A stretch of 64,000 nucleotides of DNA from Escherichia coli (GCF_030013595.1 NZ_CP122768.1), one strand, 5' to 3'. Positions 5,071 through 22,189 are shown, numbered from the stretch's first letter. A program made the numbers and translations. The notes: generated by a model from the letters alone, not told the origin.

Positions 5071-5211
5071 GCACCTCCAACTGCCGGAAACCACGTCGGG
5101 CTTCAGCAGCTCATCCGGCAGCAAAACAAACTCCATTAATTCCTGTTCCGGGCCTTTCCTGCACCTTGCGGCGGGAGGCCTTCGCACATCTGTAACAAGA
5201 GGATTGCCGCA

Positions 5212-5577
5212 ATGATTCTCGCCAACGACTTTCTTGAATACCTGCTCAACACAGAGCGTGATCTTGCCGTTCGCGTGCGTGAACGTTATGACATGTACCT
5301 GAAATCCCTGCCTGTACCGCAGCTCGCTGACGGAAAGATTGTTATTGATGGTCGCTACATGATTGACAGCCACGAGGGAAATTACAGGCTTTACCGCATT
5401 GAAGGTGGCACCCCGTCCGTTATTGGCATTTACCAGCGCCCATCCTCTGCAATCGTCGATGTGATTGCCGACAGCATCCGCATCACACATCGCCATGCCG
5501 ACACAGAAGACACCGTGCTGGAAATTCAGCGGCTGGCTACAGTCTGCCGCGACACCCTGAATGGCATGACGAAGTAA
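5212..5577 (+). CDS. Hypothetical early protein
   Basis: 121-aa ORF upstream of A. Confidence 0.5.
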   Translation: MILANDFLEYLLNTERDLAVRVRERYDMYLKSLPVPQLADGKIVIDGRYMIDSHEGNYRLYRIEGGTPSVIGIYQRPSSAIVDVIADSIRITHRHADTEDTVLEIQRLATVCRDTLNGMTK

Positions 5578-5583
5578 ATCACT

Positions 5584-8406
5584 ATGACGGCAAAGTACAT
5601 CAGGGACTGGCAACAACCGCGCCACGCAGTGGGGCGTGAAGGAACGGGGATCCCCGCTCCTGAATCCGCGCTTTCCTCCTGGCTGGATGCCTACCGGGCA
5701 GAGAACGAGCGCCGCCAGGAAATGGCTGATGCGGCGTTCTCCGCCACGCCGCTGGGCAACCTGATTAATAAAAGCCTGGACGCACAGGAAAAACAGGACA
5801 AAACCATCACACTGGCAGGAGACGCCAGAAAACAGGCACGCGGCGCGGTGGATGAAGCCATGGCCTCGCTGCGCCTGCTGCCGTCCTATCTGCGCGATCC
5901 GCTTATTCGCCACCTCTCCTTCCTGCGCAAAAAACAGGAAGCCGATCGTCAGAAAGGAAAAAACGCCAGGCAGGCAGAACGCTATGCGCGTGGGACCCTG
6001 CGCAAAATATTCGAACGTCTGGAGCGCACCGATCACCGCTGGCTGACACCGGGTTATCGCTCCCTTGCCGGACGCGAACGCCTGGACGATTTGCTTTACC
6101 TGCCGCAGCTCAACAAACACCAGATACAGACGCTGGCCACCATGACGGCGGCGATGTTCAGCAGCACCTTCGAAAAACTCTGCGATGGCTTTGGCGCGAC
6201 CGATGGCGAACTGACCATGGATGTAACGCTGAAGGCGTATCAGATGCTGGCCCGCATGGCGTTACACCTGCACATCATGCCTCCACATTATGACGCACTG
6301 ACAACAGACAAAGACCGGAGGAACGAACCGGACACGGAGCTGCTGCCGGGCGCAATCCTTCGCCTGACCTGTGCGGAATGGTGGAAACGCAAACTGTGGC
6401 TGTTACGTTGCGAGTGGCGGGAAGAACAACTCCGCGCCGCCTGTCTGGTTTCCAGAAAAACATCACCCTATCTGAGCCAGGACGCGTTAAGCGAGTTTCG
6501 CGCACACCGCGAGAAAACACGCGATTTCCTGAAAAGTTTCATGCTGGAAAATGAAGACGGGTTCACGATTGATCTCGAGACGGTGTATTACGCGGGAGTA
6601 AGTAACCCGGTTCACCGTAAGGCAGAAATGATGGCCACCATGAAGGGGCTGGAACTTCTGGCCGAAGCCCGTGGCGACAGAGCGGTGTTTCTGACTGTCA
6701 CCTGCCCGTCAAAATACCACGCAACAACGGAGAACGGTCATCCGAATCCCAAATGGAACGGGGCCACCATGCGCGACTCCAGCGATTACCTGGTTAACAC
6801 GTTTTTTGCGACGGTCCGCAAAAAACTGAACCGCGACGGTCTTCGCTGGTATGGCATCCGCACGGTGGAGCCTCACCATGACGGCACTGTGCACTGGCAT
6901 ATGATGGTCTTTGCACATCCGGACGAGATTGAAACCATCGTGTCCCACGTCTGCGATATTGCCATTCAGGAAGACCGCCACGAGCTGGGCGATGATATTA
7001 CTCCGCGTTTTAAAGCGGAGTACGTCGACGGCTCAAAAGGCACGCCAACCAGCTACATCGCCACCTACATCGGAAAGAACCTGGACAGCCGCGCCGTGGA
7101 TGGCATCGCCCCGAAAACGGGCAAGCCACGCGTTGACCACGAAACCGGAAAATCAATGGCCGAGAGCGTGGAGCGCGCCATCGGCTGGGCGCGCCTTCAC
7201 CGGGTCCGCCAGTTCCAGTTCTTTGGCATCCCCTCCCGTCAGGTGTGGCGTGAACTGCGCCGCCTTGCCAGCCAGATGGCACGCAACCCGGAAGGCCCGC
7301 AACGGCTGAAGGATGACGCAATGGATGCAGTGCTCGCTGCCGCTGATGCCGGGTGTTTTGCCTCCTACATTGAAAAACAGGGCGGCGTACTTGTTCCACG
7401 CCAGGACTACCTGATTCGCACCGCCTACGACCTCGCAGATGAGCTGAACGATTACGGCGAACAGAGCGTACAGATTTACGGGATCTGGTCACCACTCATC
7501 GGGGAGTCTTCCCGTGTGTGCACACATCCGGATAACTGGAAGCTGGTAAGACGTAAACCGGAAGCGGAAGACAGCGCCCGCGAAAATGGTTTTGACCTTC
7601 AGGGCGGCCCTGCCGCCCCTTGGACTCGTGGCAATAACTGTCCCCGTGTACAGGAAACGGACAACAACGGGACAGAACAGCCGGAAGAACGGCCAGCACC
7701 GTGGCCGCAGCTCCCTGACGGCGTTGAAGTGAACGAATGGATGCGCTCACTGAAACGGCACGAACGCCGGGCGCTGATGCGTTCGCTTCGTGACAAACAG
7801 GCAAAAAACAGCAGTGATGAAATGCAGAGCTGGACACAGAGCCGCAAACAGCAGCGGCCTTTGCCTGATAACCACGAATTACTCGCTAAAGAATGGCGGG
7901 AGTCTGCTGAATCTCTCGGCCTGCATATCGGTGAACAACAGATGCAGCACCTGTTACGGGGCGGCAGTCTGTACGTTGACGGCAGCATCATTGCACCGCA
8001 GGGATTTGAAATTGTACGCAAACCGGATACCCGCCCGGACAGCCGAATCACGCAGCTCTGGCAGCGCCTGAGCCGTAATCATGGCGTAAGCAGCACGGAG
8101 ATCCGCCATAACCCGGTCGCCAGCTATCTGGCACAGCTGGGGGCATCAGACCCTGAAGCCGCCGCACGCCTGGCATCCACACTTCAGCAGGACCAGAACA
8201 CCATGAAAACACCCGTTACCGTGCTTTCTGACATGCTGCGCGCCATCCGCGACGCAGAGCACGCACAGAGAATCAGTGAAACCACTGAACGCGCCAGCCG
8301 CAAAGCAGACCTGCTGCGGGGTGGCCTGACCAGTGGAAACAAAAAACAGACAGAAACGGGACTCACGAATCCCGCAAATGAGCAAAAAACGCGCAGCGAT
8401 ATATGA
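5584..8406 (+). CDS. A: Replication initiation endonuclease (P2 gpA family, rolling-circle)
   Basis: 940-aa ORF with the HUH-type region (GTVHWHMMVFAHPDE) and conserved P2 position between early genes and the Q/P packaging genes. Confidence 0.85.
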   Translation: MTAKYIRDWQQPRHAVGREGTGIPAPESALSSWLDAYRAENERRQEMADAAFSATPLGNLINKSLDAQEKQDKTITLAGDARKQARGAVDEAMASLRLLPSYLRDPLIRHLSFLRKKQEADRQKGKNARQAERYARGTLRKIFERLERTDHRWLTPGYRSLAGRERLDDLLYLPQLNKHQIQTLATMTAAMFSSTFEKLCDGFGATDGELTMDVTLKAYQMLARMALHLHIMPPHYDALTTDKDRRNEPDTELLPGAILRLTCAEWWKRKLWLLRCEWREEQLRAACLVSRKTSPYLSQDALSEFRAHREKTRDFLKSFMLENEDGFTIDLETVYYAGVSNPVHRKAEMMATMKGLELLAEARGDRAVFLTVTCPSKYHATTENGHPNPKWNGATMRDSSDYLVNTFFATVRKKLNRDGLRWYGIRTVEPHHDGTVHWHMMVFAHPDEIETIVSHVCDIAIQEDRHELGDDITPRFKAEYVDGSKGTPTSYIATYIGKNLDSRAVDGIAPKTGKPRVDHETGKSMAESVERAIGWARLHRVRQFQFFGIPSRQVWRELRRLASQMARNPEGPQRLKDDAMDAVLAAADAGCFASYIEKQGGVLVPRQDYLIRTAYDLADELNDYGEQSVQIYGIWSPLIGESSRVCTHPDNWKLVRRKPEAEDSARENGFDLQGGPAAPWTRGNNCPRVQETDNNGTEQPEERPAPWPQLPDGVEVNEWMRSLKRHERRALMRSLRDKQAKNSSDEMQSWTQSRKQQRPLPDNHELLAKEWRESAESLGLHIGEQQMQHLLRGGSLYVDGSIIAPQGFEIVRKPDTRPDSRITQLWQRLSRNHGVSSTEIRHNPVASYLAQLGASDPEAAARLASTLQQDQNTMKTPVTVLSDMLRAIRDAEHAQRISETTERASRKADLLRGGLTSGNKKQTETGLTNPANEQKTRSDI

Positions 8407-8451
8407 AGCGCGCACAAAACAGGCAAAAACGGGATTTCAGAATCCCGTAAA
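8354..8451. repeat. Two copies of a roughly 25-bp palindromic motif (AAACGGGA-N6-GAATCCCG-AAA) upstream of parM; candidate centromere/operator
   Basis: Copies at about 8354-8378 and 8427-8451, each an inverted repeat CGGGA...TCCCG; copy 1 overlaps the 3' end of A. Confidence 0.45.
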
Positions 8452-8482
8452 CGATTAATTAATCAACATAAGGAAAAGCGAC

Positions 8483-9442
8483 ATGAAAATTTGTATCGAC
8501 GACGGCTCCACCAACATCAAGCTGGCATGGACTGAGAACGGCGAACGCCGCAACGCCATCAGCCCGAACAGCTTCAAGTCGGAATGGTCTGCGCCGTTCG
8601 GCGGCACGCAGCCCGCGAACTACATGCTTGATGGCGTGCGCTATGGTTTTGATCCGGTCAGCGATCGCTTTGTCCAGACGACCGACACGCAATACCAGTA
8701 CAGCGATGTAAATGTCATTGCCATTCATCACGCGCTGGTCAAATCAGGCATCACGCCACAGGAGGTGGATGTGGTTGTCACCCTGCCACTGAGCGAGTAT
8801 TTCGACACAAACGCACAGCCGGACATGGCCAACATCAACCGCAAAAAAGCGAACGTTATGCGCCCGGTGGAGTACCAGAACGGCGAAGCATTCACTATCC
8901 GTAACGTGCGGGTTATGCCTGAATCCATTCCGGCTGGCTTTAAAGCACTGGCTGACATGAGTCCGTTTGAATCCCTGCTGATTGTGGATTTAGGTGGAAC
9001 CACGCTGGATGTGGCAAAGGTTCAGGGACAACTGGCAGGTATCAGCCAGGTGTTTTGCGATCCACACGTAGGCGTTTCCCTGATGGCCGATGCAGTACTG
9101 TCGGTGATGGCCACTAACGGTATGCGTACCAGTCACCACATCGCCAATACCATTATCGAACATCGCCATGATGAAGCCTGGCTGCGCCAGCACATCCACA
9201 ATGACGCGCATTACGCCAGCCTGATGGCGGTTATTCGTGAAAAGGAAGAAACACTGAAACAACGCGTGATCCGCGCGCTGGCGGGTTTTTCGGGTTACGG
9301 GCGGGTGATGGTTGTCGGTGGCGGGGCGGAGATTGTGGCACCCGCTATCCGCGAAGCCTGCGGAGTTAATGCGACTTTCATCGCGGACGGGGTGCCACAG
9401 TTTGCTCTGGTTAATGGGCTGTACGCAATGGACAAGGAGTAA
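8483..9442 (+). CDS. parM: ParM/StbA-like actin-family partition ATPase
   Basis: Residue-level similarity along the whole length to plasmid R1 ParM as I remember it (IDDGSTNIKL, YSDVNV...HHAL, VMPESIPAG, LI.DLGGTTLD, GGGAE, LVNG). Confidence 0.85.
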   Translation: MKICIDDGSTNIKLAWTENGERRNAISPNSFKSEWSAPFGGTQPANYMLDGVRYGFDPVSDRFVQTTDTQYQYSDVNVIAIHHALVKSGITPQEVDVVVTLPLSEYFDTNAQPDMANINRKKANVMRPVEYQNGEAFTIRNVRVMPESIPAGFKALADMSPFESLLIVDLGGTTLDVAKVQGQLAGISQVFCDPHVGVSLMADAVLSVMATNGMRTSHHIANTIIEHRHDEAWLRQHIHNDAHYASLMAVIREKEETLKQRVIRALAGFSGYGRVMVVGGGAEIVAPAIREACGVNATFIADGVPQFALVNGLYAMDKE

Positions 9443-9446
9443 ACCA

Positions 9447-9758
9447 ATGACGACACCAACCAGACGGATAAGTTTCTATCTGAAGCCCGCCGCCGTCAAG
9501 AACGAAGGCGAAGCATGCGCCTGGCTGGACAGCCTTACACCAGAAGCCCGCAAAAGCGGCCAACGTGTGGCTTTTCTGGCCGGGCTGGCACTTCTGAAAA
9601 TGAATCCGGCAGAGGCTTACCGACTGGCTGCATGGGCTGACGATGAGGCGTTATCAGTGACACAAACCAGGACAGAACGCCCCGCGTCACAGCCAGTACC
9701 AACCACACAGATAACCAGTCGGATGGCCGGAAATATCAGGGCGTTATTTCCCGAATAA
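9447..9758 (+). CDS. parR: ParR/StbB-like centromere-binding protein
   Basis: Starts 4 bp after parM; resembles R1 ParR from memory (FYLKP, AALTAGLAL-type helix, RALFPE C-terminus). Confidence 0.6.
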   Translation: MTTPTRRISFYLKPAAVKNEGEACAWLDSLTPEARKSGQRVAFLAGLALLKMNPAEAYRLAAWADDEALSVTQTRTERPASQPVPTTQITSRMAGNIRALFPE

Positions 9759-9821
9759 CACAACATCAGGGCGCATCCGCCCTGATGACTTTAATCCGGG
9801 AACATAAACAAGGGGGACACA

Positions 9822-10154
9822 ATGCAACACATTGACAGAGAAAAAGCGCAGCGACTGATTGAGCGGATGGAAGCGCTGGCGAAAGAAGAAAATGTCAACA
9901 TCCAAAAAATAGCTGAATGTGGCCAGATAGTTCTTCGTCGTGAAAAAGACCTCAAACAACTGATGTCTGGCGAAACCAGCAAAACATGGACTTCAGGCGA
10001 GGAGACGATTTATTGCAGCTTCTGCAATAAATCTCAGTACGAAGTCACAAAGGTGATTGCCGGACCGTCTGTTTACATCTGCAATGAGTGCGTGGATTTG
10101 TGCAATGAAATTATCAGGAGAGAAGTGACAGACAAAAAGGGAAAAAACGCATGA
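9822..10154 (+). CDS. Small protein with a C-terminal ClpX-type C4 zinc-binding domain
   Basis: [39 protein letters not shown] closely parallels the ClpX N-terminal zinc-binding domain ([40 protein letters not shown]); no AAA+ module follows. Confidence 0.7.
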
Positions 10155-10489
10155 ACAGAAAACAAAAACAAGAGTTGAAATACTTTTTACGTAAAGAAAT
10201 TGCCAGGCTTGAAGATGCAGAATCACAATCATCAGAAATTCCGTTCGGAATGGATATCAACGACGCCCGTATGCTCCAGGCATACCGCATAGCTCAGGCT
10301 GCACTACAGGCAAAACCGTCAGATGGACTGGTTAGAGCAGTACGATTCTATGAACTGGTAAAGCGTGAGAATCCGCCAGCCGAAACCGGAGCATGGAAAG
10401 ACGCTGTTGACTGGGTACTCAAAGAGGCTTGTCAGGTTGTAAACACTGGCATCAAAGGAGACCTAGCCCAGCCTGCATCAAAGCTATAG
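10151..10489 (+). CDS. Hypothetical protein translationally coupled to the ClpX-ZBD gene
   Basis: ATGA overlap with upstream stop; 112 aa, no recognised domain. Confidence 0.5.
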
Positions 10490-10498
10490 AAATGAGCC

Positions 10499-10527
10499 AA
10501 AACGCCCTCTTCCAGGGCGTTTATTTC
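10499..10527 (+). terminator. Rho-independent terminator after the accessory genes
   Basis: GC stem AACGCCCT/AGGGCGTT followed by a T-rich tract. Confidence 0.55.
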
Positions 10528-10980
10528 AATGCACAATAGTGCACAAATTTGCACAATTTTTTTGAACGAATTTTTGCCCTTCCGGCCCGCGTGACAGTTG
10601 GATCCGTCAAGGATCCGTGCGTGCACAAAAAAACGCGCTTTTTCTGCGCGCAGGTGACGGGGGAACAGCCCGCGTTTCAGGGGGTAAATAGCATTCCCTG
10701 AACGATGTCGCAGAGATACAACAGAATGGCTGTATTTCTCACGCTGAGCGTGAAAAAGATGTGAGGGCTTTTGATTTGATGGGGTGAAAGGTAAGGCCGT
10801 CAAAATCGCACTGAGGCGGCGAGAACATACAGTCAACGCGGTAGGATTGCGTAAGAGTCTGACCGTCGATGGTGGCGATAAACTGGAAGGCGTCGTGAAA
10901 TTATCTGATTGATACAGGAGCTGGAGAGTCGGGGCATAAATTTTTTATGCCCCGGCGAAGCAGCAGACAAGCGAAGCGCG

Positions 10981-12027
10981 TCAGGATGTGGGCTGGGTAT
11001 CTAACAGTGCGTAAGGGTTAAAGCGGATCACCTCTTCGCCAAGCCAGTCATTGATGTGCTTCATGGCCTCCATGACGGGCATCAGCTCGTTAATTGCGTA
11101 AACCCGCGCGGCCTTCTCCACATCACCAAACGCACTTTTTTCACCCGGCATCGCTCCCATCAGTTGCGGCGGAACGCGGTGCGCAGCCAGCACATCATCA
11201 CGGGATGCCGCCTTAACATTCATGAACTCATCCTTTGCGGTGATCTGCTGGAACGGCAAAATTTGCACACCTTCTTTGCCCCCGTTGGGCGCATGAATGA
11301 GCACGTTTTTAAATGCACCACCACCACGCGCACCCTGTAACGTTTCTTTCAGGGAGTCCATGCTTTCGCGGTTTACCTGCGCTGCACCGATGTAGATGAT
11401 GCACCCGGCGTGGGATCCGTTGTCGTAATACAGTTTTCTGAACATGTCCGCCGAATGAGACAGGCTGGCCGAGAGTAATGCGCCAAGATATTCCGGCATG
11501 CCGTAAATTTCCTGGTTAATGTCAGGATTCATCAGGTGACACACTTTGCCTGGGCGAAACTGAAACGCATCCTTGCCATCCTGCACATACCACCATGATT
11601 CAAGATCGCTTCCGCGTCGCATGTATTTCGCCAGGGCGTGCCGTAATTTAAGCGGTTCGCCGAGCATATTGCTTCGAAGCTCAAGGAATGCGTTACCGAA
11701 CACAAACCAGTCCAGCGCCAGCGCCGAGAAATCCTGCCGGGAAAGCAGCGGGTGCGGAATATAGCAGCCGAGCAATACATTGCGCTTAAAGTAAAGCGCA
11801 GACTGATGCCAGGACGTTTGCCGGGCAGCTCTTGCCAGACCGTACCAGTCTACCGGGGTTTCATACCACCGCCCGTTATCAGCACAGTACATATTGTCCA
11901 GCAGGTCATGCCCGGTCAGGCGATAAGGACCATCAAATGTGAATGCACTGAGCGATGATTCTTTCCTGAGCGCATCAGCGAGATCAATGCGTGAACTCAT
12001 GCGCACTTTTTTATTTTTTCTGCTCAT
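10981..12027 (-). CDS. Q: Portal protein (P2 gpQ)
   Basis: 348-aa ORF matching P2 Q in size and position, divergent from O. Confidence 0.85.
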   Translation of the reverse strand: MSRKNKKVRMSSRIDLADALRKESSLSAFTFDGPYRLTGHDLLDNMYCADNGRWYETPVDWYGLARAARQTSWHQSALYFKRNVLLGCYIPHPLLSRQDFSALALDWFVFGNAFLELRSNMLGEPLKLRHALAKYMRRGSDLESWWYVQDGKDAFQFRPGKVCHLMNPDINQEIYGMPEYLGALLSASLSHSADMFRKLYYDNGSHAGCIIYIGAAQVNRESMDSLKETLQGARGGGAFKNVLIHAPNGGKEGVQILPFQQITAKDEFMNVKAASRDDVLAAHRVPPQLMGAMPGEKSAFGDVEKAARVYAINELMPVMEAMKHINDWLGEEVIRFNPYALLDTQPTS

Positions 12028-13778
12028 CAGAACTCCATAACCGTGAAACGCTCGTTTTCTCCTTCGCCGCCAATTGGTTCGTTAATGACAGCAAGCATGG
12101 TTGCCCACGCAAGGTCGCCGTGGCTGATCCCCCTCGCGCGGTCCGTTTCGTAAGTGATAAAGCCGCCCGGTGTTTTCACCTTACGCACGGCGTTAAAGGC
12201 CGCGACCAGCTCGCGTTCGGCGCGATCGTATTCCCACCGTCCGGCACGCATTATTTGCAGCATTTTCAGTACCAGCGACCGTTTGGATGACAGCGTGAAG
12301 GTGTACGGAATAGCAGCAGGGAAAAACCGCTTCACTATCTGATAAACAGCCTCCCCGTTCCCGCCCGTCACATCAATGCCGATGTGTTCCACGTTGTAGC
12401 GACACGTGAACTCTTCAATGACTCTGGCCTGTTCTTCAAACTCCAGCCCCTGAACGCGTCGCGTCTCCACCGTTCGAAAACGGCCACCAGGAACAGCCGG
12501 AGGAACCACCACGGACACAGCGCCGCTGTCGCCGTTGCCACTGCTGCCGTTTGCGTCATACCCAATCCATACCGGACGATTCCCCATCGGGCGGGGAGCA
12601 AAAGGTTTCCAGTCTTTCCAGTCGTCGTATCCGTCAACACCGCAGCCAATCAGGATATTCAGGTTAAATGCCGATTCCCCTTCGCGAACAAACTCACACA
12701 TATAGAGATTGAGGAACTCGTCTTCGGTGTTTTCATCACGGATTTCGTCAATATCGGTGTGTTTCCAGCCGTGATTAACCACATCTTCCAGCGTGACAAT
12801 TTGCCGCCACGTCCGGTCAGGGCAGATAAGCCCGTTATGCAGCGTTTTCCAGTCCACAGAAAAACGCTGGCGTTTATGCGCGGCCTTTTTCTCGTTCCAG
12901 CGGTCGCCGTTCCAGTAGACGTATGCCTCGTGCGTTTCGGTTGATGGCGTGGAGAAGTAGGTGCGCCGCAGTCCGCTGAGGGTTGCCATAGCGCCAGCCA
13001 CCTTGCGCAGTTCAGCAAAGCGACTGACCCAGAAAAATTCATCAAAATAAAAATTGCCTGTGTAGGACTGTGCCGTCGCAGCAGAAGTACCGAGAAAATG
13101 CAGTTCTGCGCCGTTGGAGAGGATGATTTTATCGCCCCCTTTCAGCTCCACATCAACTTCAGCCGCGGCCTTCTGAATAATGCTTTTAAACTGGAACGCC
13201 TGACGACGCGACGCAGACAAAAAAATCTGGTTACGCTGGTAAGGTTGTGCCACATCGTCACGCAGCGCCATCAGCAGTGCTTCCTGTGCAAAATACCAGG
13301 TCGCCCCAATCTGTCGGGATTTCAGGATCATCCTGTTACGTATCCCGGCTTCACTGCAAAGGGTCAGGGAGTCAAACCAGCCCCGCTGATGCCACTCCAG
13401 CCTGCTGATGATTTTTTCCCGCAGTGCGGCAATCTGCTCCGGCGTGAAATGATTTTTAAGTTTTTTCGCCCGGCCTTTCTTTCCTGTGGCCGTCGCATCC
13501 GGCTGGCCATCATGCAGTTTTTTAAGCTGCCGGGTCAGCAGGTCTATTTCCTTAAAGTCACCACCTGTTTTATTCTGTTTTTCAGTAAGCTGGATGAGGC
13601 GCGCATCGATGGACTGCGTGACACGCTGCACGGGTGGCGTTTCATCCCACTGGTCGCGTTTTTTCCACGCATAAATCGTGTTCGGGTTTATTCCCATCAG
13701 ACGTGATATTTCTGCGGGCGGATAACCCTGCCAGTAAAGTTGCCGCGCACGCTGGCGCACAAAAGCGTCCTGAATCAT
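12027..13778 (-). CDS. P: Terminase large (ATPase) subunit (P2 gpP)
   Basis: 583-aa ORF directly upstream of Q on the same strand; P2 P family. Confidence 0.85.
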   Translation of the reverse strand: MIQDAFVRQRARQLYWQGYPPAEISRLMGINPNTIYAWKKRDQWDETPPVQRVTQSIDARLIQLTEKQNKTGGDFKEIDLLTRQLKKLHDGQPDATATGKKGRAKKLKNHFTPEQIAALREKIISRLEWHQRGWFDSLTLCSEAGIRNRMILKSRQIGATWYFAQEALLMALRDDVAQPYQRNQIFLSASRRQAFQFKSIIQKAAAEVDVELKGGDKIILSNGAELHFLGTSAATAQSYTGNFYFDEFFWVSRFAELRKVAGAMATLSGLRRTYFSTPSTETHEAYVYWNGDRWNEKKAAHKRQRFSVDWKTLHNGLICPDRTWRQIVTLEDVVNHGWKHTDIDEIRDENTEDEFLNLYMCEFVREGESAFNLNILIGCGVDGYDDWKDWKPFAPRPMGNRPVWIGYDANGSSGNGDSGAVSVVVPPAVPGGRFRTVETRRVQGLEFEEQARVIEEFTCRYNVEHIGIDVTGGNGEAVYQIVKRFFPAAIPYTFTLSSKRSLVLKMLQIMRAGRWEYDRAERELVAAFNAVRKVKTPGGFITYETDRARGISHGDLAWATMLAVINEPIGGEGENERFTVMEF

Positions 13779-13932
13779 TGCTCCCCCTGAGTAATTACAG
13801 GAAGATTACCCGCGCGCGAAACCGTTCTCCTTAACCCCCTGTTCTGGCCGTTTTCTTACAACAAAAGCCCTTTGTATCAGCCTGTTACGCTTTGCCATCA
13901 TGACTGAAGAACCAGTCAGAGGGGCAAAAACT

Positions 13933-14769
13933 ATGGCTAATGAAAAAAAGACATCCCGCAAAAAGTTTCGCGTGGCTGTCTCCGGATCAACTGTTGATGG
14001 CCGTGAAATCAGTCCGGTGCATCTGCGTGAAGCCGCCGAGAACTTCAACCCGGATGTTTACGCTGCCCGCGTGAACGTTGAGCACTATCTCTCGCCATGC
14101 CCGTCAAGCGAATTTTCCGCAATGGGCGATGTCACCGCACTGAGTACGGAAGACATTACGGAAGGTCCGCTGGCCGGACGTACTGCGCTGTATGCAGAAA
14201 TCGAACCGACCGAGCGCATGAAGCAGCTTGTCGCGGACGGCAAGAAAATCTATTCCAGTATCGAACTGCACCCGCAGTTCTCCGTTAACGGGCGCGCCTA
14301 TCTGGTCGGGCTGGCGATGACCGACACCCCGGCAAGCCTGGGCACTGAGCGCCTGAAATTCACGGCACAGCAACGTCAGGCGGTGATGACGTTCAACAGT
14401 GTCCAGGGTGAAGCACCGCTCATTTCCGAAGCCATCGAGTCTGAAATCATCGAAATGGCAGAACAACGCCAGGAAGAAGGCACCCAGTGGTTTAACCGCG
14501 TAATGGGGATTATTGGTCGTGGCCGCAAAGCGGATGACGCCAGTTTCTCCCGTATTCAGGAAGCGGTGGAAGGCGTCGCAACGTCACAGGCCGACATTAT
14601 CGACCGTTTTAATGTGCTGGAAACCCGCCATCAGCAGGACCGCCAGAAAATCACGTCACTGACCACAGAGCTGACAGCACTGAAGGAAAAACTGCGCACG
14701 CAGGACGGCGATCCGCAGAACCGCTTCACCGCAACGGGCGCAGCCTCCGACCAGCTGGCTGACTTCTGA
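13933..14769 (+). CDS. O: Capsid scaffolding protein (P2 gpO)
   Basis: Resembles P2 O N-terminus (FRVAVSGSTVDGREIS...VNVEHYL); ORF open from 13900. Confidence 0.8.
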   Translation: MANEKKTSRKKFRVAVSGSTVDGREISPVHLREAAENFNPDVYAARVNVEHYLSPCPSSEFSAMGDVTALSTEDITEGPLAGRTALYAEIEPTERMKQLVADGKKIYSSIELHPQFSVNGRAYLVGLAMTDTPASLGTERLKFTAQQRQAVMTFNSVQGEAPLISEAIESEIIEMAEQRQEEGTQWFNRVMGIIGRGRKADDASFSRIQEAVEGVATSQADIIDRFNVLETRHQQDRQKITSLTTELTALKEKLRTQDGDPQNRFTATGAASDQLADF

Positions 14770-14791
14770 TAAGACAAAGGAGCAAATTTTT

Positions 14792-15844
14792 ATGAATCTG
14801 GTGATGTCAGATATTACCCGCAACAAGCTGGGTTGCTATATGGCGCAGCAGGCGTCGCTTAACAATATCCCGGTATCTGCACTGGTATCGCGATTTACCG
14901 TAGAACCCTCGGTGCAGCAGCGTTTTGAAAACGCAGTAAAGGAGAGCACTGAATTTACAAAAAAAATTAACGTGTTCGGTGTGACTGACCAGAAAGGCGA
15001 AAAAATCCTCCTTGACACCACCGGGCCGATTGCGCGCACGAATACCAGTTATGACGGCACAAAACGCCGTAACCCGAATAACGTGGTTGATCTGAAAAAC
15101 CGCAAATACCAGTGCGAACAGGTGAACTACGACACGTTTATTTCGTATCCGCAGCTTGATGCCTGGGCGGCACACCCTGATTTTCAGTCCCGCGTCAGCA
15201 CACAGATTGCCCGGCAGGTGGCGCTTGACCGCATCATGATCGGTTTCAACGGCACGTCTCACGCAGATGAGTCCAACTTCAGCACTAACAAGCTGCTTCA
15301 GGACGTTAACGTGGGATGGCTGGAGCACATCAGAACCGACGCCAGCGAGCGCGTTATGAATGATGTAACGCTGACCTCCCGCAACATGGACAACACCGTG
15401 GCGCACGCGGGTAAATATGCGAACGCTGATGCACTGGTACAGGACGCGCGCTCATCCCTGCTGGATGAATGGCACAAGGAAGCTGACGACCTCGTGGTGA
15501 TTATGGGGCGCAACCTGTTTAACTCGCTGCGTCTGCCCGTGCTGAACAGCATCAGCGGCCAGAATCCCAATGCGGAATTACTTGCCGGACAGCTCATCCT
15601 GTCATCGCGCGCCATTGGCGGGCTGGATGTATTCCTTGCGCCGTTCTTCCCGGATGCAACGATGCTGATCACCTCGTTCAACAACCTGTCAATTTACTGG
15701 CAGAAAGGAACAATGCGTCGCCTGATGAAAGACGAGCCGGAATACAACCGCATCGCCACCTACCAGTCCATCAATGACGCTTATGTCGTTGAAGACTATG
15801 GCAAGTGCGCGATGGTCACTGGCCTGAAGTTCGCCGACAGCTAA
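14792..15844 (+). CDS. N: Major capsid protein (P2 gpN)
   Basis: 350 aa; conserved blocks FTVEPSV, MIGFNG, LVVIMGR, NLSIYW as in P2 N. Confidence 0.9.
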   Translation: MNLVMSDITRNKLGCYMAQQASLNNIPVSALVSRFTVEPSVQQRFENAVKESTEFTKKINVFGVTDQKGEKILLDTTGPIARTNTSYDGTKRRNPNNVVDLKNRKYQCEQVNYDTFISYPQLDAWAAHPDFQSRVSTQIARQVALDRIMIGFNGTSHADESNFSTNKLLQDVNVGWLEHIRTDASERVMNDVTLTSRNMDNTVAHAGKYANADALVQDARSSLLDEWHKEADDLVVIMGRNLFNSLRLPVLNSISGQNPNAELLAGQLILSSRAIGGLDVFLAPFFPDATMLITSFNNLSIYWQKGTMRRLMKDEPEYNRIATYQSINDAYVVEDYGKCAMVTGLKFADS

Positions 15845-15889
15845 TCACCTCACGGCGGGCATCATGCCCGCCTGTAACGGAGAGAAAAA

Positions 15890-16690
15890 ATGATTACTCC
15901 TGCACAGCAACACTGGCAGAACGTGATGGCACAGCGCGCAGGCCGGGCGAATGAAGGCGTGGACCACGCCGCGCGTACCGCGCATGAAGAGGTGCTGTAT
16001 CGTCTGCGTCTGGCACAGGCCCGGCTTAAGGGCGTACAGGCCAGAAGCGCGAAAGCCGCCATCAAAAAAGAGTTATTGCCGGACTTTTCCGGCTGGATTG
16101 AGGGAACGCTGGAGGCTGACGGCGGGCAGCAGGATGAAGTGATTGCCACGCTGATGGTCTGGGCGATTGACTGCGGCGATCTTCCGCTGGCGCTGCGTAT
16201 TGGTGCATATGTGGTCCGTCACAACCTCATCATGCCGGATAACTTTGGACGTACTGCTGCCACGGTACTGACCGAAGAAATCTGTAATCCGGTACTGACG
16301 CAGGCCGGGACGGATGCCGACGCGGATTTGTCCGCCTTTATCGAACCACTGGACACCCTCCGGGAGATTGTCACCGACCAGGACATGCCGGACGAAGTGC
16401 GCGCCAAATTATGCAAAGCGTGCGCCTTTGCCCGCCGTGGCCTGAGTGATACGGACAGCATGGCCCTGTCACTGAAGCTGCTGCGCGAAGCAATGCACCT
16501 GAACCCGAACGCAGGTGTGAAACGCGAGATTGCAACCCTTTCCCGCGCCCTGAAAAAAGCCGATTCCGCAGCCGCACCAGAAGACGCCAGCGCACAGCAG
16601 ACGCAGGACGAAAGCAGCAAAAGTAAAAAGACAACGCGGAAGCCTGCAACACGAAAAACCACCGCGACGCAGAAGGCGAAGCGCGGTTAA
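15890..16690 (+). CDS. M: Terminase small/endonuclease subunit (P2 gpM)
   Basis: Conserved KKELLP, DMPDEVRAKL, AGVKREI blocks of P2 M. Confidence 0.85.
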   Translation: MITPAQQHWQNVMAQRAGRANEGVDHAARTAHEEVLYRLRLAQARLKGVQARSAKAAIKKELLPDFSGWIEGTLEADGGQQDEVIATLMVWAIDCGDLPLALRIGAYVVRHNLIMPDNFGRTAATVLTEEICNPVLTQAGTDADADLSAFIEPLDTLREIVTDQDMPDEVRAKLCKACAFARRGLSDTDSMALSLKLLREAMHLNPNAGVKREIATLSRALKKADSAAAPEDASAQQTQDESSKSKKTTRKPATRKTTATQKAKRG

Positions 16691-16783
16691 CGACTGACCC
16701 CGTCAGCGGGCGGCGTGCGCGGTGTTCCGGTTTGACTCCGTGACCGTTTACACCGCGCACCCACCGCCCGATTTTTTTCAGGA

Positions 16784-17287
16784 GTGAACCCCATGAGTAT
16801 GGTTGCCAGAACTGAACCCAGACCCGCAGAGGACGACATCACCGATACCGATGATGGCGATACCCGCATTTCAGCGGGTGCATTCTGGCCGGATATTGTG
16901 CTGCGCGAGCTGCGTCTGGCGGTACGACTGCCGGGCCGCGTGACCACCTCCCGCCTGCTACATACTGCCACCGGGGCTGTGGCACACGTTACCCGCGAGC
17001 TGGAAGCATGGCAGCAGGAACAGCAGGCAGCTGGCCATCAGACGCTGGCCGATGTTCCGGCACCCGTAATTAACGGAGAAAGCGTCAATCTCTGGCACTG
17101 GCGCAATGCTGTTTATACCGCCACGCGCGCCCTGATTCTGGAGCGTTACCGCGATGCGGACACAACGGATAAGGGCGACCGCCGGGCGGACGCACTGGAT
17201 ATACAGACATCGGATTTGTGGCGCGATGTGAGCTGGGCCATCTCTGACATTCTGCGCCGCCCGCGAATTTTTGCGGAGCTGTGCTGA
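16784..17287 (+). CDS. L: Capsid completion protein (P2 gpL)
   Basis: C-terminal LWRDVSWA...RRPRI matches P2 L. Confidence 0.85.
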   Translation: MNPMSMVARTEPRPAEDDITDTDDGDTRISAGAFWPDIVLRELRLAVRLPGRVTTSRLLHTATGAVAHVTRELEAWQQEQQAAGHQTLADVPAPVINGESVNLWHWRNAVYTATRALILERYRDADTTDKGDRRADALDIQTSDLWRDVSWAISDILRRPRIFAELC

Positions 17288-17487
17288 TGAAAGTGAAGGC
17301 ACTGGAAGGCGACACCGTGGATTCGCTCTGTTTCCGGTACTACGGCACGACGCAGGGCGTCACCGAAAAGGTGCTGGATGCCAACCCCGGACTCTGTCAG
17401 CAGGTATTTCTGGACGCCGGGCAGGACGTGGAGATGCCGGAGCCGGAGAAGAAGAAACGAGAAATGATTCAGTTGTGGGGGGAGTAG
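17287..17487 (+). CDS. X: Tail protein X (P2 gpX)
   Basis: MKVKALEGDTVDSLCFRYYGTTQGV...ANPGL parallels P2 X. Confidence 0.85.
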   Translation: MKVKALEGDTVDSLCFRYYGTTQGVTEKVLDANPGLCQQVFLDAGQDVEMPEPEKKKREMIQLWGE

Positions 17488-17489
17488 CA

Positions 17490-17813
17490 GTGAGCACCAT
17501 TCAAACAGGGATCACAGAGCAGGTTATTGCGTGGCTCTTTGACCACCTGCCAACGGTGTATGCAGTAGGCGCGGCGGTCAGCATTTCCGCGCTGATGAGT
17601 CTTTATGACGGACGAACACTGGTTCAGACCGTAACGGGATCGCTGGCGTGCGGCGTTCTTGCCATGGCCGTGGCCGGGTCGTTGCGCTTCTTCGGGTTTC
17701 CTGAAGATGCCGTGACGTTTATCGGCGCATCAATCGGTTTTATGGGCGCAGAGAAAGCACGCGACAAGGTTATTGCGGCCTTTAATCGCAGGGTGAAGGG
17801 GAAGGACGAATGA
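17490..17813 (+). CDS. Y: Holin (gpY position)
   Basis: GTG start with GGGGGAG ribosome-binding site; small protein with hydrophobic helices directly before the endolysin. Confidence 0.65.
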   Translation: MSTIQTGITEQVIAWLFDHLPTVYAVGAAVSISALMSLYDGRTLVQTVTGSLACGVLAMAVAGSLRFFGFPEDAVTFIGASIGFMGAEKARDKVIAAFNRRVKGKDE

Positions 17814-18202
17814 GCAACACATTTAAATTCAGCAGTCGGAGCGAAAAGAATTTGCAGGGCGTAAATCCTGATCTGGTGAAAGTGACCCGACGGGCACTGG
17901 AAATTTCGGAAGTGGATTTTGGTATCACCGAAGGGTTGCGCAGCCGTTACCGCCAGAAGCAACTTGTGGCCACAGGTAAGAGCCAGACCATGAACAGCCG
18001 CCACCTTACGGGACATGCCGTGGATGTTGTGGCTTATATCGGCAGCCAGGTGTCATGGGAATGGCCGCTGTACGAAAAAATCGCAGCAGCATTCAGACAG
18101 GCCAGCCGGGAGCTGAATATTCCGGTGGAATGGGGCGGCGACTGGAAGACCCTGAAAGACGGACCGCATTTTCAGTTACCACACGGAGCCTATCCGGCAT
18201 GA
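17810..18202 (+). CDS. Endolysin, peptidase M15 family (L-alanyl-D-glutamate peptidase-like)
   Basis: SRHLTGHAVDV...VEWGGDW motif arrangement typical of zinc D-Ala-D-Ala carboxypeptidase-like phage lysins; occupies the P2 K position. Confidence 0.7.
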   Translation: MSNTFKFSSRSEKNLQGVNPDLVKVTRRALEISEVDFGITEGLRSRYRQKQLVATGKSQTMNSRHLTGHAVDVVAYIGSQVSWEWPLYEKIAAAFRQASRELNIPVEWGGDWKTLKDGPHFQLPHGAYPA

Positions 18203-18606
18203 AGCTCTGGCCCACGCTGGGTGTCGCTTTCCTTCTGATTGCCGCATGGGGAACATCCATGCGTCTGTCATGGTCGCTGGGCCGGGAGAACGCCAGAAAC
18301 GAAGCGCAGGCCAGCACCCTGAAACGTACCGCCGACACCCTGAATATCATCAGCGCCGGGGTACAGGATATGCAGCAGGTGCTGGCGCAACTCCGCGTGG
18401 AAAATCAGCAACGCAATCAGGACGGAGAGGTAAGACGTGAACAGCTACGCAACGATATTGCAAAAGATGAATGCGCCCACGCTTTGCCTGACGCTCGTTT
18501 TACTGACAGGCTGCGCAGGCACGCAGAACGCGCCACTGCCAGCGCCGTCAGTCCGGCTTATACCGCAGACGCTGACCATACCGGTAACGCCGCCCCCCTT
18601 CCCTGA
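18199..18606 (+). CDS. i-spanin (LysB/Rz-like)
   Basis: N-terminal transmembrane segment followed by coiled-coil; overlaps the embedded lipoprotein gene. Confidence 0.6.
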   Translation: MKLWPTLGVAFLLIAAWGTSMRLSWSLGRENARNEAQASTLKRTADTLNIISAGVQDMQQVLAQLRVENQQRNQDGEVRREQLRNDIAKDECAHALPDARFTDRLRRHAERATASAVSPAYTADADHTGNAAPLP

Positions 18607-18757
18607 TACTCCCACATGGGGAAATCTCGGTATATGGGGCGACCGCCTTCTGGATGCACTGGAAACCTGTAACGCGGATAAACGGGCCATTGAATTACTG
18701 GAACAGCGCAGGCTGCAACGACTGAACAACGAGGACAACAACCATGCTGAAAACTGA
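18437..18757 (+). CDS. o-spanin lipoprotein (LysC/Rz1-like), embedded and overlapping
   Basis: Signal peptide with lipobox LLTGC; proline-rich mature part; starts inside the i-spanin gene in another frame. Confidence 0.6.
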   Translation: MNSYATILQKMNAPTLCLTLVLLTGCAGTQNAPLPAPSVRLIPQTLTIPVTPPPFPDTPTWGNLGIWGDRLLDALETCNADKRAIELLEQRRLQRLNNEDNNHAEN

Positions 18758-19211
18758 TTCCCTGCGTGAAGCCATGACCCGTTCATGCCGATGGTGTCAG
18801 GCCAACCCGGAAAAATTCACCATTTTCGTGGAGAGCGGCAACATTGAAACGACCGGAGAAACGCCCTCGTTTGTTTACCGCTATCAGATGGTGATGTTTG
18901 TCATGGATTACGCCGGGGAGCTGGACGACCTCACGCTGCCGCTGCTGGCGTGGTTATCCGAAAATCAGCCACAGTTGTTGCTCAACCCTGAGCGTAATCA
19001 GGACATCAAATTCTCCGCCGTTATCAATGACGATGACAGCGCCGATCTCCTGTTTACGCTCCCCCTGCGGGAACGCGTTCGCATCACGCGCAGCAGTCAG
19101 GGGACACCGCAGGCAGAACACCTGCCGGAGCCAAAACCCCGCCTGCCATCACCCGAAGGCGACTGGTCGCATGTATTCCAGGATGTGACGTGGGGTGAAA
19201 GCGATGGATAA
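18744..19211 (+). CDS. R: Tail completion protein (P2 gpR)
   Basis: 155 aa, same length and position as P2 R. Confidence 0.8.
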   Translation: MLKTDSLREAMTRSCRWCQANPEKFTIFVESGNIETTGETPSFVYRYQMVMFVMDYAGELDDLTLPLLAWLSENQPQLLLNPERNQDIKFSAVINDDDSADLLFTLPLRERVRITRSSQGTPQAEHLPEPKPRLPSPEGDWSHVFQDVTWGESDG

Positions 19212-19839
19212 GGCATTCACCCGCGTGGATGAAACCTTTGAGGCCATCCGCGACAGCCTGAATCAGCAGGCCATCAATAACATCGCCAGAAAGCTGGCAC
19301 AGGATTTACGCCGCGCCCAGCAGGCGCGTATCCGGTCACAGAAAGCGCCGGACGGGACCGCGTGGACACCACGCAGACGCCGCGTAACCCGGATACAGGA
19401 GCGCATTCGCTTTATCTGGAATAACGAAGCACGCACGCTGAAAAACTGGCATCACGACACGGGGAAATACGGGCGAACCATTACCGGGTGGGATGAGGAT
19501 AAAAACAATATCCGCACGTTTTACCGGGATGACATCGACCGTTTTCTGGAAATACGCACCCGGCGCATCAACCAGGACAGCACAAAGCGCGTCCCCATGT
19601 TCGTAAAACTGCGCACCGCCCGCTACCTGAAAGCCCGTGCAGATGCTTCCGGTGTGACGGTGGGTTACAGCGGCGTGGCCGCACGTATTGCCCGCGTTCA
19701 TCAGTTCGGTGAGCGCGATCAGGTTGCGCCGGGCATTTTCACCGATTACCCGGTACGTGAGCTGCTGGGTATCAGCCAGGCAGATGAGCGCCTGATTTAT
19801 AACACGGTGCTGGGCCGGATTGCGGAGGCTGTACGGTGA
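19195..19839 (+). CDS. S: Tail completion/virion morphogenesis protein (P2 gpS-like)
   Basis: Position between R and V; longer than P2 S. Confidence 0.7.
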   Translation: MKAMDKAFTRVDETFEAIRDSLNQQAINNIARKLAQDLRRAQQARIRSQKAPDGTAWTPRRRRVTRIQERIRFIWNNEARTLKNWHHDTGKYGRTITGWDEDKNNIRTFYRDDIDRFLEIRTRRINQDSTKRVPMFVKLRTARYLKARADASGVTVGYSGVAARIARVHQFGERDQVAPGIFTDYPVRELLGISQADERLIYNTVLGRIAEAVR

Positions 19840-20417
19840 GCGCAGAACTCATGCGACTGCTGAGCAATATCATCCGCACCGGGATCATCTCTGAAGTTGA
19901 TGAGAAGTCCTGGCGCGTGCGCGTTCGCAGCGGCGAACTGGAAACAGGCTGGTTGCGCTGGAACACCACGCGCGCGGGAGCCTTCAATGTATGGCTGCCG
20001 CCATCACCAGGCGAACAGGTGGTAATTGCCTGCATTGGCGGCAACCCGGAAACCGCCATGATAATTGGCAGCCTGTGGAGTGATGCCAGTCCGGCCCCCG
20101 GCAAAAGCCTGAAAGAAATCGTGGTCAGCGCGCCGGATGGCGCGGCGTTCCGCTACGACGCAGACGCTGGCGCACTGAGCGCCAGCGGCATGAAAACAGC
20201 CACCCTGCAGGCATCCGTCAGCGTGACACTGGATACGCCCGTCGTGGAATGCACAAACCTTCTGAGAACAGCGACGCTTGACGTCACAAAAGGGGGAAAG
20301 ATGAGCGGCAATATCACGCACAGCGGCGGCGATTTCACCTCAAACGGCATCACAGTGCATACGCATAAGCACGGTGGCGTTAAAGGTGGCAGCGATTCGA
20401 CAGGAGGCCCGCAGTGA
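19836..20417 (+). CDS. V: Baseplate spike/assembly protein (P2 gpV)
   Basis: 193 aa with the conserved GG/HTH..HGG C-terminus of gpV-type spikes. Confidence 0.85.
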   Translation: MSAELMRLLSNIIRTGIISEVDEKSWRVRVRSGELETGWLRWNTTRAGAFNVWLPPSPGEQVVIACIGGNPETAMIIGSLWSDASPAPGKSLKEIVVSAPDGAAFRYDADAGALSASGMKTATLQASVSVTLDTPVVECTNLLRTATLDVTKGGKMSGNITHSGGDFTSNGITVHTHKHGGVKGGSDSTGGPQ

Positions 20418-20764
20418 CAACCCGCTACACAGGAATGAACCCGGACGGAACGGGAAACCTGAACGATATGGAGCACCTGAAACAGTCAGTCAGGGACATC
20501 CTGACCACCCCGCTGGCCAGCCGGGTTATGCGACGGGAATATGGCAGCCTTGTGCCTGATTTGATTGACGAACCCATGAATAACACCACGCGTCTGCAAT
20601 GCATGAGTGCTGCCGTGATTGCGCTGACACGATGGGAACCCCGCATTGCCCTGGACGCTATCGACGTTGTCTGGAAGGCAGGAGGCCGCGCCGGGGTGAC
20701 GCTGTCGGGCACTGTCATGCAGACCATGCAGAATGTTGAATTAACCATCACGCTGAGGGAGTAA
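20414..20764 (+). CDS. W: Baseplate protein (P2 gpW)
   Basis: 116 aa, overlaps V stop; P2 W size and position. Confidence 0.85.
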   Translation: MTTRYTGMNPDGTGNLNDMEHLKQSVRDILTTPLASRVMRREYGSLVPDLIDEPMNNTTRLQCMSAAVIALTRWEPRIALDAIDVVWKAGGRAGVTLSGTVMQTMQNVELTITLRE

Positions 20765-20767
20765 ATC

Positions 20768-21664
20768 ATGCCTGCCGTTGACCTTTCACAGTTACCGGAC
20801 CCCGCCATCATCGCGGAGCCTGACTTTGAGGCAATTCTGGCTGACACAAAGGCCATGATGATTGCGTCCTATCCCGCCGAACAGCGTGAAGCCGTTTCCG
20901 CCGCGCTGGAGCTGGAATCGGAACCCCTTAACGTTATCGCTCAAACCATGTCGTTTCGTGAAATGCTGTTACGCCAGCGGGTCAATGAGGGTGCACGCGC
21001 CTGCATGCTAAGCCACAGCGCCGGGACAGACCTGGACAACCTCGCGGGCAATATGAACACAAAGCGCCTGGTTATCACTCCGGCAACGGATACCACCGAC
21101 GCAGTGATGGAAAGTGACACCTCGCTGAGACTACGGGCGCAACGGGCATATGACGGTCTGAGTGTTGCTGGCCCGTCAGGTGCATACGAGTATTTTGCAC
21201 GCAGCGCCAGCGGTCTGGTACGCGATGCGCGGGCCATCAGCCCGTCTCCGGCCAACGTGACGGTTTCCATCCTGTCCACTGAGGGCGACGGCACAGCAAC
21301 GGAGGCATTGCTTAATACCGTTCGCGCCGTTCTGAATGCAGAGGATACCCGCCCGGTGGCCGACCGCCTGACCGTACAGAGTGCCAGAATCGTGACATGG
21401 CGGCTGAATGCAAAACTGTACTTTTACCCCGGCCCGGAATCCGAACCTATTCTGGCCGCGGCGGAATCGTCGTTCAGGAAGTGGCTGTCTGAGCAGGGGC
21501 TTATCGGTCAGGATGTGGCGTTGTCAGCCATTGCTGCCGCACTGCATGTGCACGGTGTGCAACGCGTGGAGATAATCGAACCCACACAAAATATGGCCAT
21601 CAGCGACATACAGGCGGCGCGCTGTGAGTCATTCACCATCAGCGAAGGTGGGCGTAATGAGTAA
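20768..21664 (+). CDS. J: Baseplate assembly protein J (P2 gpJ)
   Basis: 298 aa, P2 J position. Confidence 0.85.
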   Translation: MPAVDLSQLPDPAIIAEPDFEAILADTKAMMIASYPAEQREAVSAALELESEPLNVIAQTMSFREMLLRQRVNEGARACMLSHSAGTDLDNLAGNMNTKRLVITPATDTTDAVMESDTSLRLRAQRAYDGLSVAGPSGAYEYFARSASGLVRDARAISPSPANVTVSILSTEGDGTATEALLNTVRAVLNAEDTRPVADRLTVQSARIVTWRLNAKLYFYPGPESEPILAAAESSFRKWLSEQGLIGQDVALSAIAAALHVHGVQRVEIIEPTQNMAISDIQAARCESFTISEGGRNE

Positions 21665-22187: not shown

Positions 22188-22189
22188 GC

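Follow-up and report, generated by a model that had tools for sequence, protein, structure and literature searches.

A ParM/ParR partition module of the R1 family with two candidate upstream sites in integrating P2-like phages

The ParMRC system of R1 and R100 (StbA, StbB and parC) serves low-copy plasmids and is arranged in the order sites, parM, parR, its parC in R1 being composed of two blocks of five 11-bp iterons that flank the promoter. Type II-like modules are described as well for elements whose resting state is chromosomal: SrpMRC of the SXT/R391 integrative and conjugative elements (ICEs), with srpC made of four 13-bp repeats, stabilises the excised circular ICE and a single-copy plasmid (Carraro et al., 2015; PMC4489591). 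Prophage CGP3 of Corynebacterium glutamicum encodes the actin-like filament former AlpC and the DNA adaptor AlpA acting together with alpS (Donovan et al., 2015; PMC4446434), and the P1-like phage-plasmid D6 carries a StbA/StbB pair. For P2-like phages themselves, a putative partition system was noticed in about a quarter of representatives (Rousset et al., 2022; PMC9122126). Here, we addressed how these systems compare with the parMR cassette found in a stretch of 64,000 nucleotides (hereafter the window) of an Escherichia coli genome (GCF_030013595.1, NZ_CP122768.1), where it lies within an integrated prophage related to the P2-like phage P88. Judged by sequence and predicted fold, the window module is a genuine, intact R1-family type II ParM/ParR pair.

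With R1/R100 it shares the gene order, all nucleotide-binding motifs of ParM, the Pfam family of ParR and the conserved N-terminal strand and C-terminal tail of this protein. It differs in being carried by an integrating P2-like phage and not by a low-copy plasmid, in a shorter ParR, and in having two 18-bp palindromes placed 73 bp apart where R1 has its iteron blocks. SrpMRC resembles it in the chromosomal resting state of the host element and in the small number of binding repeats, but SrpM is a remote relative of ParM and SrpR shows no homology to ParR, whereas the window proteins clearly belong to the R1 family; besides, SrpMRC is co-transcribed with int under SetCD control and is carried by an ICE, not a phage. 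AlpAC likewise belongs to an integrated prophage, its adaptor binds repeats near the promoter region of the operon, and it acts on excised circular phage DNA; in contrast to the window module, it employs a different actin-like family and 24 alpS repeats in a Gram-positive host devoid of MreB, and it has been shown to act in efficient replication and in positioning at the membrane rather than in segregation. D6 encodes a ParM homologue 47.8% identical to that of the window, followed by a StbB-type ParR, and is the only other record of this kind in the phage collection, but as a 91-kb extrachromosomal plasmid prophage it is expected to need partition, while the P88 group integrates. Residence on a low-copy extrachromosomal replicon, as is usual for ParMRC, and the autonomous replication, usually without integration, of phage-plasmids are both at odds with what is found here, namely an integrase, att repeats and copies that are almost all chromosomal.

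ParM and ParR proteins

ParM is about 47% identical to R1 ParM over its full length, and a phmmer search against PDB sequences aligned residues 2-316 with the R1 ParM structure 1mwk at E=9e-93. Both Pfam domains are recognised, StbA_N with 2.5e-82 and the ParM C-terminal domain with 2e-68, and the protein falls into PHROG 691 ("partition protein", 1.8e-90); in NCBIfam only sub-threshold matches were obtained (PRTRC protein D and PRK13917). When the window protein was aligned with R1-type, IncFIA-type and D6 ParMs and with four diverged ParMs of phage lineages, the motifs turned out to be invariant: phosphate-1 DDGST..K (residues D6, D7, G8, S9, T10 and K13), the PES glutamate (P146, E147, S148), phosphate-2 DxGGTTLD (D169, G171, G172, T173, T174, L175 and D176) and the adenosine motif GGGA (G279-A282).

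The parR gene begins 4 nt past the parM stop codon (ATG at 9447). Its product matches Pfam Plasmid_stab_B (PF10784, 2e-24) and PHROG 2515 ("partition protein", 3.2e-58); NCBIfam gave no match, and comparison with the sequences of solved structures returned only chance matches to antibodies. The AlphaFold2 model is confident over residues 1-60 (predicted local distance difference test, pLDDT, above 86) and consists of an extended N-terminus followed by helices, with a separate helix at the C-terminus; its sole significant Foldseek match is ParR of pB171 (2jd3_A, probability 1.00, root-mean-square deviation 1.9 A). The model is that of a monomer, in which an intersubunit beta-ribbon cannot appear. 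Three segments are conserved across twelve aligned ParRs, i.e., the N-terminal R(R/K)ISFYLKP (RRISFYLKP in the window and, with a slight difference, NRKISFYLKP in Serratia and Enterobacter), the helix RxAxLAGLAL and the C-terminal tail N-x3-LFP(D/E), with a variable linker between them. The first of them sits where ribbon-helix-helix proteins have their DNA-reading strand and may play the same part here. R1 ParR binds ParM by its C-terminal peptide, and the C-terminal helix with the tail motif is conserved in both phage alleles and in plasmid ParRs that are only about 25% identical overall to the window protein. P88-type ParR, 103 aa long, is devoid of some 30 central residues present in the other aligned proteins. 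A natural allele found in phage vB_EcoM-569R5 and some others is only 56% identical overall, yet residues 1-18 and the C-terminal tail are retained in it and the upstream sites that accompany it are the same, as expected if the N-terminal strand reads DNA.

An earlier, sequence-only reading of this stretch had proposed exactly such a cassette within an integrated P2-like prophage, taking the 319-aa protein for an R1-type ParM and the gene 4 bp further on for a ParR; all of this was borne out by the comparisons given above and by the att repeats that delimit the prophage.

Candidate cis sites upstream of parM

Two direct repeats of 42 nt, 79% identical and 73 nt apart, precede parM, and each of them holds a palindrome regarded here as a candidate ParR site (Table 1). 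Both copies had been pointed out from the sequence alone as 25-bp palindromes; they are present, but extend over 18-20 bp, and the first one is imperfect. The last codons of gpA, the gene of the replication endonuclease, overlap site 1, so this DNA is putatively constrained twice, as coding sequence and as a binding site. The pattern CGGGAYT-N4-AATCCCG occurs in the 64 kb only at these two places, with 0.05 occurrences expected in shuffled sequences; since it was taken from the sites themselves, it demonstrates their uniqueness and has no independent significance. Independent support comes from conservation across lineages. In Hafnia and Plesiomonas prophages, whose ParMs are 62-63% identical to that of the window, GGG-N10-CCC cores occupy corresponding positions relative to the parM start codon (Table 1), while the DNA around them is diverged, and the inner bases read GGGAYT-N4-AATCCC in P88, GGGATTGAGGAAACCC and GGGTTCATTAAATCCC in Hafnia and GGGACAAC(A/C)(A/T)(A/T)AACCC in Plesiomonas. 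Position and spacing retained over diverged inner bases fit an operator or centromere, not an RNA hairpin. A distance of 73 bp corresponds to about seven helical turns and would place both sites on the same face of DNA.

Variation of the sites within the population was assessed with loci from an IMG/VR scan, which yielded 80, each of them 99% identical or more. Among 95 close relatives, the commonest form of site 1 is the perfect palindrome CGGGATTCACAAATCCCG (CGGGATT-CACA-AATCCCG), and the commonest forms of site 2 are likewise perfect, CGGGATT-TCAG/TAAA-AATCCCG. Much of the variation falls within the central 4 bp, to which natural variants of site 2 are mainly confined (TCAG to TAAA), and in site 1 position 6 of the half-site varies too; the outer GGG/CCC change less freely than the centre. 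The Serratia/Enterobacter group exhibits a different cis arrangement, with inverted arms of about 20 nt, GGGAACnAAAtAGAAAAATG. A 16-nt string ACAGGCAAAAACGGGA (8419-8434), which forms the left flank of site 2 in P88, is identical in the site of the Serratia prophage, and the repeated unit may extend past the palindrome.

The only other invariant island in this region is an AT-rich box located between site 2 and the parM Shine-Dalgarno sequence (Table 1), where ATTAAT(Y)AA is retained between diverged flanks in P88, in the E. coli variant with 93% identical ParM, in Hafnia and in Plesiomonas; it may represent the -10 region of a parM promoter. The tetranucleotide AAAC is found seven times in the 160 nt upstream of parM, with 0.9 expected, and is frequent in R1 parC too, but this enrichment is not conserved in Plesiomonas and was discarded as an argument for iterons. 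For comparison, an R1-type plasmid has a classical A/C-rich iteron array.

Phage backbone, distribution and descent

The host prophage is flanked on either side by DNA not belonging to this phage and, having both att repeats and an integrase, is in the integrated state (Table 1). Over 8200-9900, the sequence is 100% identical to that of Escherichia phage P88, which is P2-like and inducible by mitomycin (PMC5285337), and the entire prophage is a mosaic relative of P88, with 98.3% identity over 5097-23058, 92-94% in other blocks and an extra insertion of 3.8 kb. Its gpA product is longer (940 aa) than those of other ParMR-carrying P2-like prophages (785-907 aa). DNA homology between the window and many relatives ends near the hairpin that closes the cassette, with breakpoints at 9751-9784. 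Ten loci coding for exactly the same ParM all have the order gpA, parM, parR but differ in the genes which follow, among them Ead/Ea22 genes, a ClpX zinc-finger protein, a helix-turn-helix gene with an M78 peptidase, and others. Constancy of parMR against the swapping of downstream cargo implies that the pair is part of the backbone, bordering on the variable gpA-gpQ hotspot, and is not cargo itself. In the window, the first genes past the hairpin (9822-10489) encode a 110-aa protein made up of nothing but a ClpX-type C4 zinc finger (N-terminus of TIGR00382, 2e-13) and a 112-aa protein with no assignment; in more distant ParMR-carrying prophages, the same slot is occupied by DUF3800, a KAP NTPase or HicAB.

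The 1.7-kb region comprising the module was found in 1369 complete E. coli genomes out of 5426 (about 25%), and precisely the ParM of the window is present in 8576 blocks of a public assembly collection. The phage collection contains 14 P88-type records with ParM at least 95% identical, and D6. Across the 5000 plasmid records that matched best, the top ParM shows 99% identity or more in six and does not exceed 52% in the rest, with no values between; the six are P88-like phages, entire or integrated, or "plasmid" records the size of a chromosome. Several very large E. coli records filed as plasmids contain the P88-type cassette, namely CP061244.1 (1.41 Mb), CP054248.1 (542 kb) and NZ_CP114132.1 (439 kb); their sizes point to pieces of a chromosome or to large plasmids into which a prophage has integrated, so labels placing this module "on plasmid" need checking case by case. 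A search of species-representative genomes with ParM peptide patterns gave only three near-identical loci. One of these, a 99% identical P88-type ParM on a 3.7-kb contig (JAIJJM010000298.1) of an actinobacterial gut metagenome-assembled genome named "Collinsella sp.", is probably binning contamination from an Escherichia prophage.

Protein search revealed intermediate ParMs at 54-63% identity: those from Hafnia (62%), Plesiomonas (63%), Serratia (58%) and Enterobacter (54%) are accompanied by a PF10784 ParR and reside in P2-like prophages with a shared order of gpA, parM, parR, a few variable genes, sometimes ogr, and then portal and terminase genes on the opposite strand. The E. coli variant with 93% identical ParM has the same arrangement, and the succession gpA-parM-parR is common to prophages of Escherichia, Citrobacter, Hafnia, Plesiomonas, Serratia and Enterobacter. 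More distant ParMs (49-50%) belong to an ICE in Dickeya and to a plasmid-like region in Mangrovibacter. On the neighbour-joining tree, phage ParMs form two groups, P88 with Hafnia and Plesiomonas, and Serratia with Enterobacter, each with bootstrap support of 100/100, and all plasmid ParMs fall outside both of them. A single origin of all phage ParMs is not claimed, the union of the two groups having a support of only 52/100. Within the E. coli group, the dN/dS ratio amounts to 0.07-0.14 for parM and 0.16 for parR, and where synonymous sites are unsaturated it does not exceed about 0.3 (0.46 for one parR pair); between lineages, dS rises up to saturation. By these substitution ratios, parMR is under purifying selection, and the phage clades appear to be old and vertically maintained. 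Capture of the module from a plasmid, one of the explanations offered from the sequence alone, is compatible with these clades and with the gap among plasmid records only as an ancient event.

Outside the cassette, a His-Xaa-Ser radical-SAM cassette occupies 32230-36006 between the tail genes and the ogr/hok end of the prophage; its minus-strand open reading frames (ORFs) at 33029-34141 and 34134-35522 were noted along with matches to HxsC (TIGR03977, 1.3e-119) and HxsB (TIGR03978, 8.3e-168), hxsD being assigned according to the annotation of matching genomes. This cassette is missing in the P88 record and probably represents cargo belonging to the second P2 hotspot. A second prophage-like region, at approximately 37000-59000, adjoins attR on the right; the two prophages stand in tandem. 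A 90-nt tRNA-Leu(CAG) reported by ARAGORN at 20123-20212 (minus strand), within the baseplate/tail coding region and opposite to its genes, is probably a false positive.

Table 1. Features of the window and placement of the upstream cores in three lineages
Feature	Coordinates	Strand	Remarks
P88-like prophage (Xuanwuvirus, Peduoviridae)	864-36926		Bounded by an exact 20-bp att direct repeat, AAAAAGGCCGCAGAGCGGCC (864-883 and 36907-36926)
Integrase ORF	1811-2938	minus	
gpA, replication endonuclease, 940 aa	5584-8406	plus	ORF; annotation of P88 and E. coli genomes; PF05840 (Phage_GPA) on orthologues
Repeat copy 1	8340-8381	plus	Candidate ParR site 1, imperfect palindrome CGGGACTCACGAATCCCG, 8357-8374, inside gpA 3' end
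Repeat copy 2	8413-8454	plus	Candidate ParR site 2, perfect palindrome CGGGATTTCAGAATCCCG, 8430-8447, intergenic
AT-rich box	8454-8466	plus	ATTAATTAATCAA
parM Shine-Dalgarno	8470-8474	plus	AAGGA
parM, 319 aa	8483-9442	plus	Actin-fold partition ATPase, R1 ParM family
parR Shine-Dalgarno	9434-9439	plus	AAGGAG, within parM 3' end
parR, 103 aa	9447-9758	plus	Ribbon-helix-helix-type adaptor, StbB/ParR family
GC-rich hairpin	9764-9787		10-bp stem, closes the cassette; terminator-like on minus strand, plus-strand T tract weak
GGG-N10-CCC cores, P88 (window)	-125 and -52 from parM ATG		Site 1 and site 2, spacing 73 bp
GGG-N10-CCC cores, Hafnia	-128 and -55 from parM ATG		Site 1 and site 2, spacing 73 bp
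GGG-N10-CCC cores, Plesiomonas	-131 and -59 from parM ATG		Site 1 and site 2, spacing 72 bp
DNA methyltransferase	41096-42181	minus	Second prophage-like region
DnaT-like protein	50220-51245	minus	Second prophage-like region
RecE-like exonuclease VIII	55110-57581	plus	Second prophage-like region
Integrase-like ORF	57868-58887	plus	Second prophage-like region
rlmI	60744-61934		Host gene beyond the second prophage-like region

Possible role of the module and its rivals

Since an integrated prophage segregates together with the chromosome, the pay-off of the module must come while the phage genome is a free circle. The reading we favour, tentatively and with a probability of roughly 0.4, is that ParMRC operates on transient circular phage DNA, segregating or stabilising the free episome, and belongs to the backbone of a branch of P2-like phages. 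Dimers of ParR would use their N-terminal strand to bind the two CGGGATT-N4-AATCCCG palindromes, probably repressing parMR at the same time, and the C-terminal helix of ParR would capture the ends of ParM filaments, whose ATP-driven growth would push sister circular genomes apart. The module would matter only while extrachromosomal circles exist, in the interval between infection and integration or once the prophage has excised; partition of the circles would then leave a copy in each daughter cell and make loss less frequent, in the way SrpMRC acts on SXT/R391 ICEs. Binding of ParR to its sites, filament formation and the stage of the life cycle at which the module acts are predicted.

Several considerations weigh against this proposal. 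Replication of the P2 type depends on gpA, and as the immunity repressor should switch gpA off, two non-lytic circles may never coexist for segregation; SOS induction leads to lysis, making faithful inheritance pointless at that stage. Out of 1540 places occupied by the region in complete E. coli genomes, 1538 are chromosomal and two are on plasmids. The presence of only two sites, as against ten iterons in R1 parC, may mean that they serve as an operator alone. A consensus scan of 8100-10000 revealed no sigma-70 promoter, and manual inspection gave no convincing -35/-10 pair. In the literature, no experimental study of the module was found, and the paper describing P88 is silent on it (PMC5285337).

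The strongest competitor, which we regard as unlikely but ahead of the remaining ones, is an organiser of the lytic cycle similar to AlpAC, with ParMR moving or dispersing replicating circles, for instance apart from each other or towards the membrane, after infection or induction, and thereby raising the efficiency of replication and packaging. The position of parMR, co-oriented with the early operon and directly after gpA in every lineage examined, fits this explanation equally well, and it would explain why selection is strong although the phage is nearly always found integrated. It has a precedent in CGP3, where AlpC and AlpA are early genes required for full replication of phage DNA, with an effect of about 2-fold, and where the authors argue against a role in segregation (PMC4446434). 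Nevertheless, the AlpC family is distant, while the window ParM is close to a bona fide plasmid segregator and its ParR has a plasmid-like tail; moreover, about three quarters of E. coli P2-like phages manage without the module (PMC9122126).

Considerably less probable is a facultative plasmid prophage, i.e., a low-copy circle maintained in some hosts, for example those with no usable attB, and stably inherited due to ParMRC. This possibility was suggested by Rousset et al. (2022; PMC9122126), was also among those raised from the sequence alone, and is in line with D6 with its homologous StbA/StbB pair and with the Plesiomonas relative located on a phage-sized contig of 32 kb. A further argument for it is the PLSDB record NZ_CP148288.1 of strain Z1323PEC0009, a 34,461-bp circular molecule that comprises a complete P88-like phage. 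However, this record retains the integrase, and many other strains have integrated phages whose integrase and immunity region is 99.8% identical to that of the record; it is ambiguous and may reflect either a plasmid state or an excised replicating circle captured by assembly. The only replication gene annotated in P88 and in the circular record is gpA, although no dedicated search for a plasmid-type one was made. With nearly all copies chromosomal and the integrase retained, persistence as a plasmid is rare at best. A repurposed filament system, the remaining suggestion made from the sequence alone, may still apply.

Still lower we place an accessory function in host or phage competition, such as incompatibility with or exclusion of elements with related par systems, or an action on the chromosome. 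Such a function would suit a self-contained cassette, which begins with the sites and ends with the hairpin and lies on the gpA side of the gpA-gpQ hotspot known for anti-phage and other accessory systems (PMC9122126), but no PADLOC defence model matches ParM or ParR, parMR stays constant beside changing cargo, and it co-diverges with the phage across genera in the manner of backbone genes. Improbable to almost the same degree is that the upstream palindromes are RNA hairpins, terminators or gpA-related elements, the true parC being elsewhere or absent. On the minus strand both palindromes do look like terminators, with 8-bp stems followed by T-rich tails, and hairpins of about -10 kcal/mol are predicted in P88; stable folds are, however, confined to the E. 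coli group. The sites of Hafnia and Plesiomonas, with loops of 10 nt, fold weakly (-2.7 to -5.6 kcal/mol) and have no T tails, and yet they keep GGG-N10-CCC, the position and the spacing of 72-73 bp; no minus-strand gene upstream needs termination there, and a central 4 bp freer to vary than the outer GGG/CCC fits the operator of a dimeric protein. On these comparative grounds, the terminator interpretation was rejected. An inert relic of old plasmid-phage recombination is strongly disfavoured, for although P2-like phages can generally dispense with the module and most lack it (PMC9122126), the low dN/dS (0.07-0.16), the intact catalytic motifs, the conservation of sites and gene order across genera and the abundance of the exact ParM in public assemblies all speak against it.

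What is known and what the module may mean

As an annotation the module is already known: in RefSeq, the genes of P88 are named "replication endonuclease", "plasmid segregation protein ParM" and "partition protein", the prokaryotic genome annotation pipeline (PGAP) and PHROGs 691 and 2515 agree with this assignment, the D6 genome record mentions similarity to "phage P88 StbA", and a paper on Citrobacter phiSM lists the gene as a fitness factor (PMC6456863). As a hypothesis it is known as well, since Rousset et al. (2022; PMC9122126) noted a "putative plasmid partitioning system" at the same gpA-gpQ locus and with the same frequency ("around a fourth"), and the novelty attached to it by the sequence-only reading was overestimated. 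That mention takes one sentence and does not describe the sites, ParR alleles, cross-genus conservation or selection. Added here are the two-site architecture with its conservation between lineages, the allele structure of ParR, the status of the pair as backbone and not cargo, and the evidence for old phage clades that appear vertically maintained under purifying selection.

About 25% of complete E. coli genomes thus carry a plasmid-type segregation cassette on an integrating phage. If it is active on transient phage circles, the blurring of the border between integrated and plasmid-like elements, exemplified by SrpMRC and ICEs, would extend to tailed phages, and the compact two-site parC would become convenient for studying the minimal number of ParR sites sufficient for a segrosome. 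It is conceivable, though unlikely in our estimation, that a branch of integrating rolling-circle P2-like phages has kept ParMRC with a two-operator centromere for a regular non-lytic episomal phase, being either a carrier or plasmid-like state or a course of replication followed by partition that makes both daughters of an infected cell lysogenic. Were this the case, a latent ParMRC spindle would be present in roughly one E. coli genome out of four.

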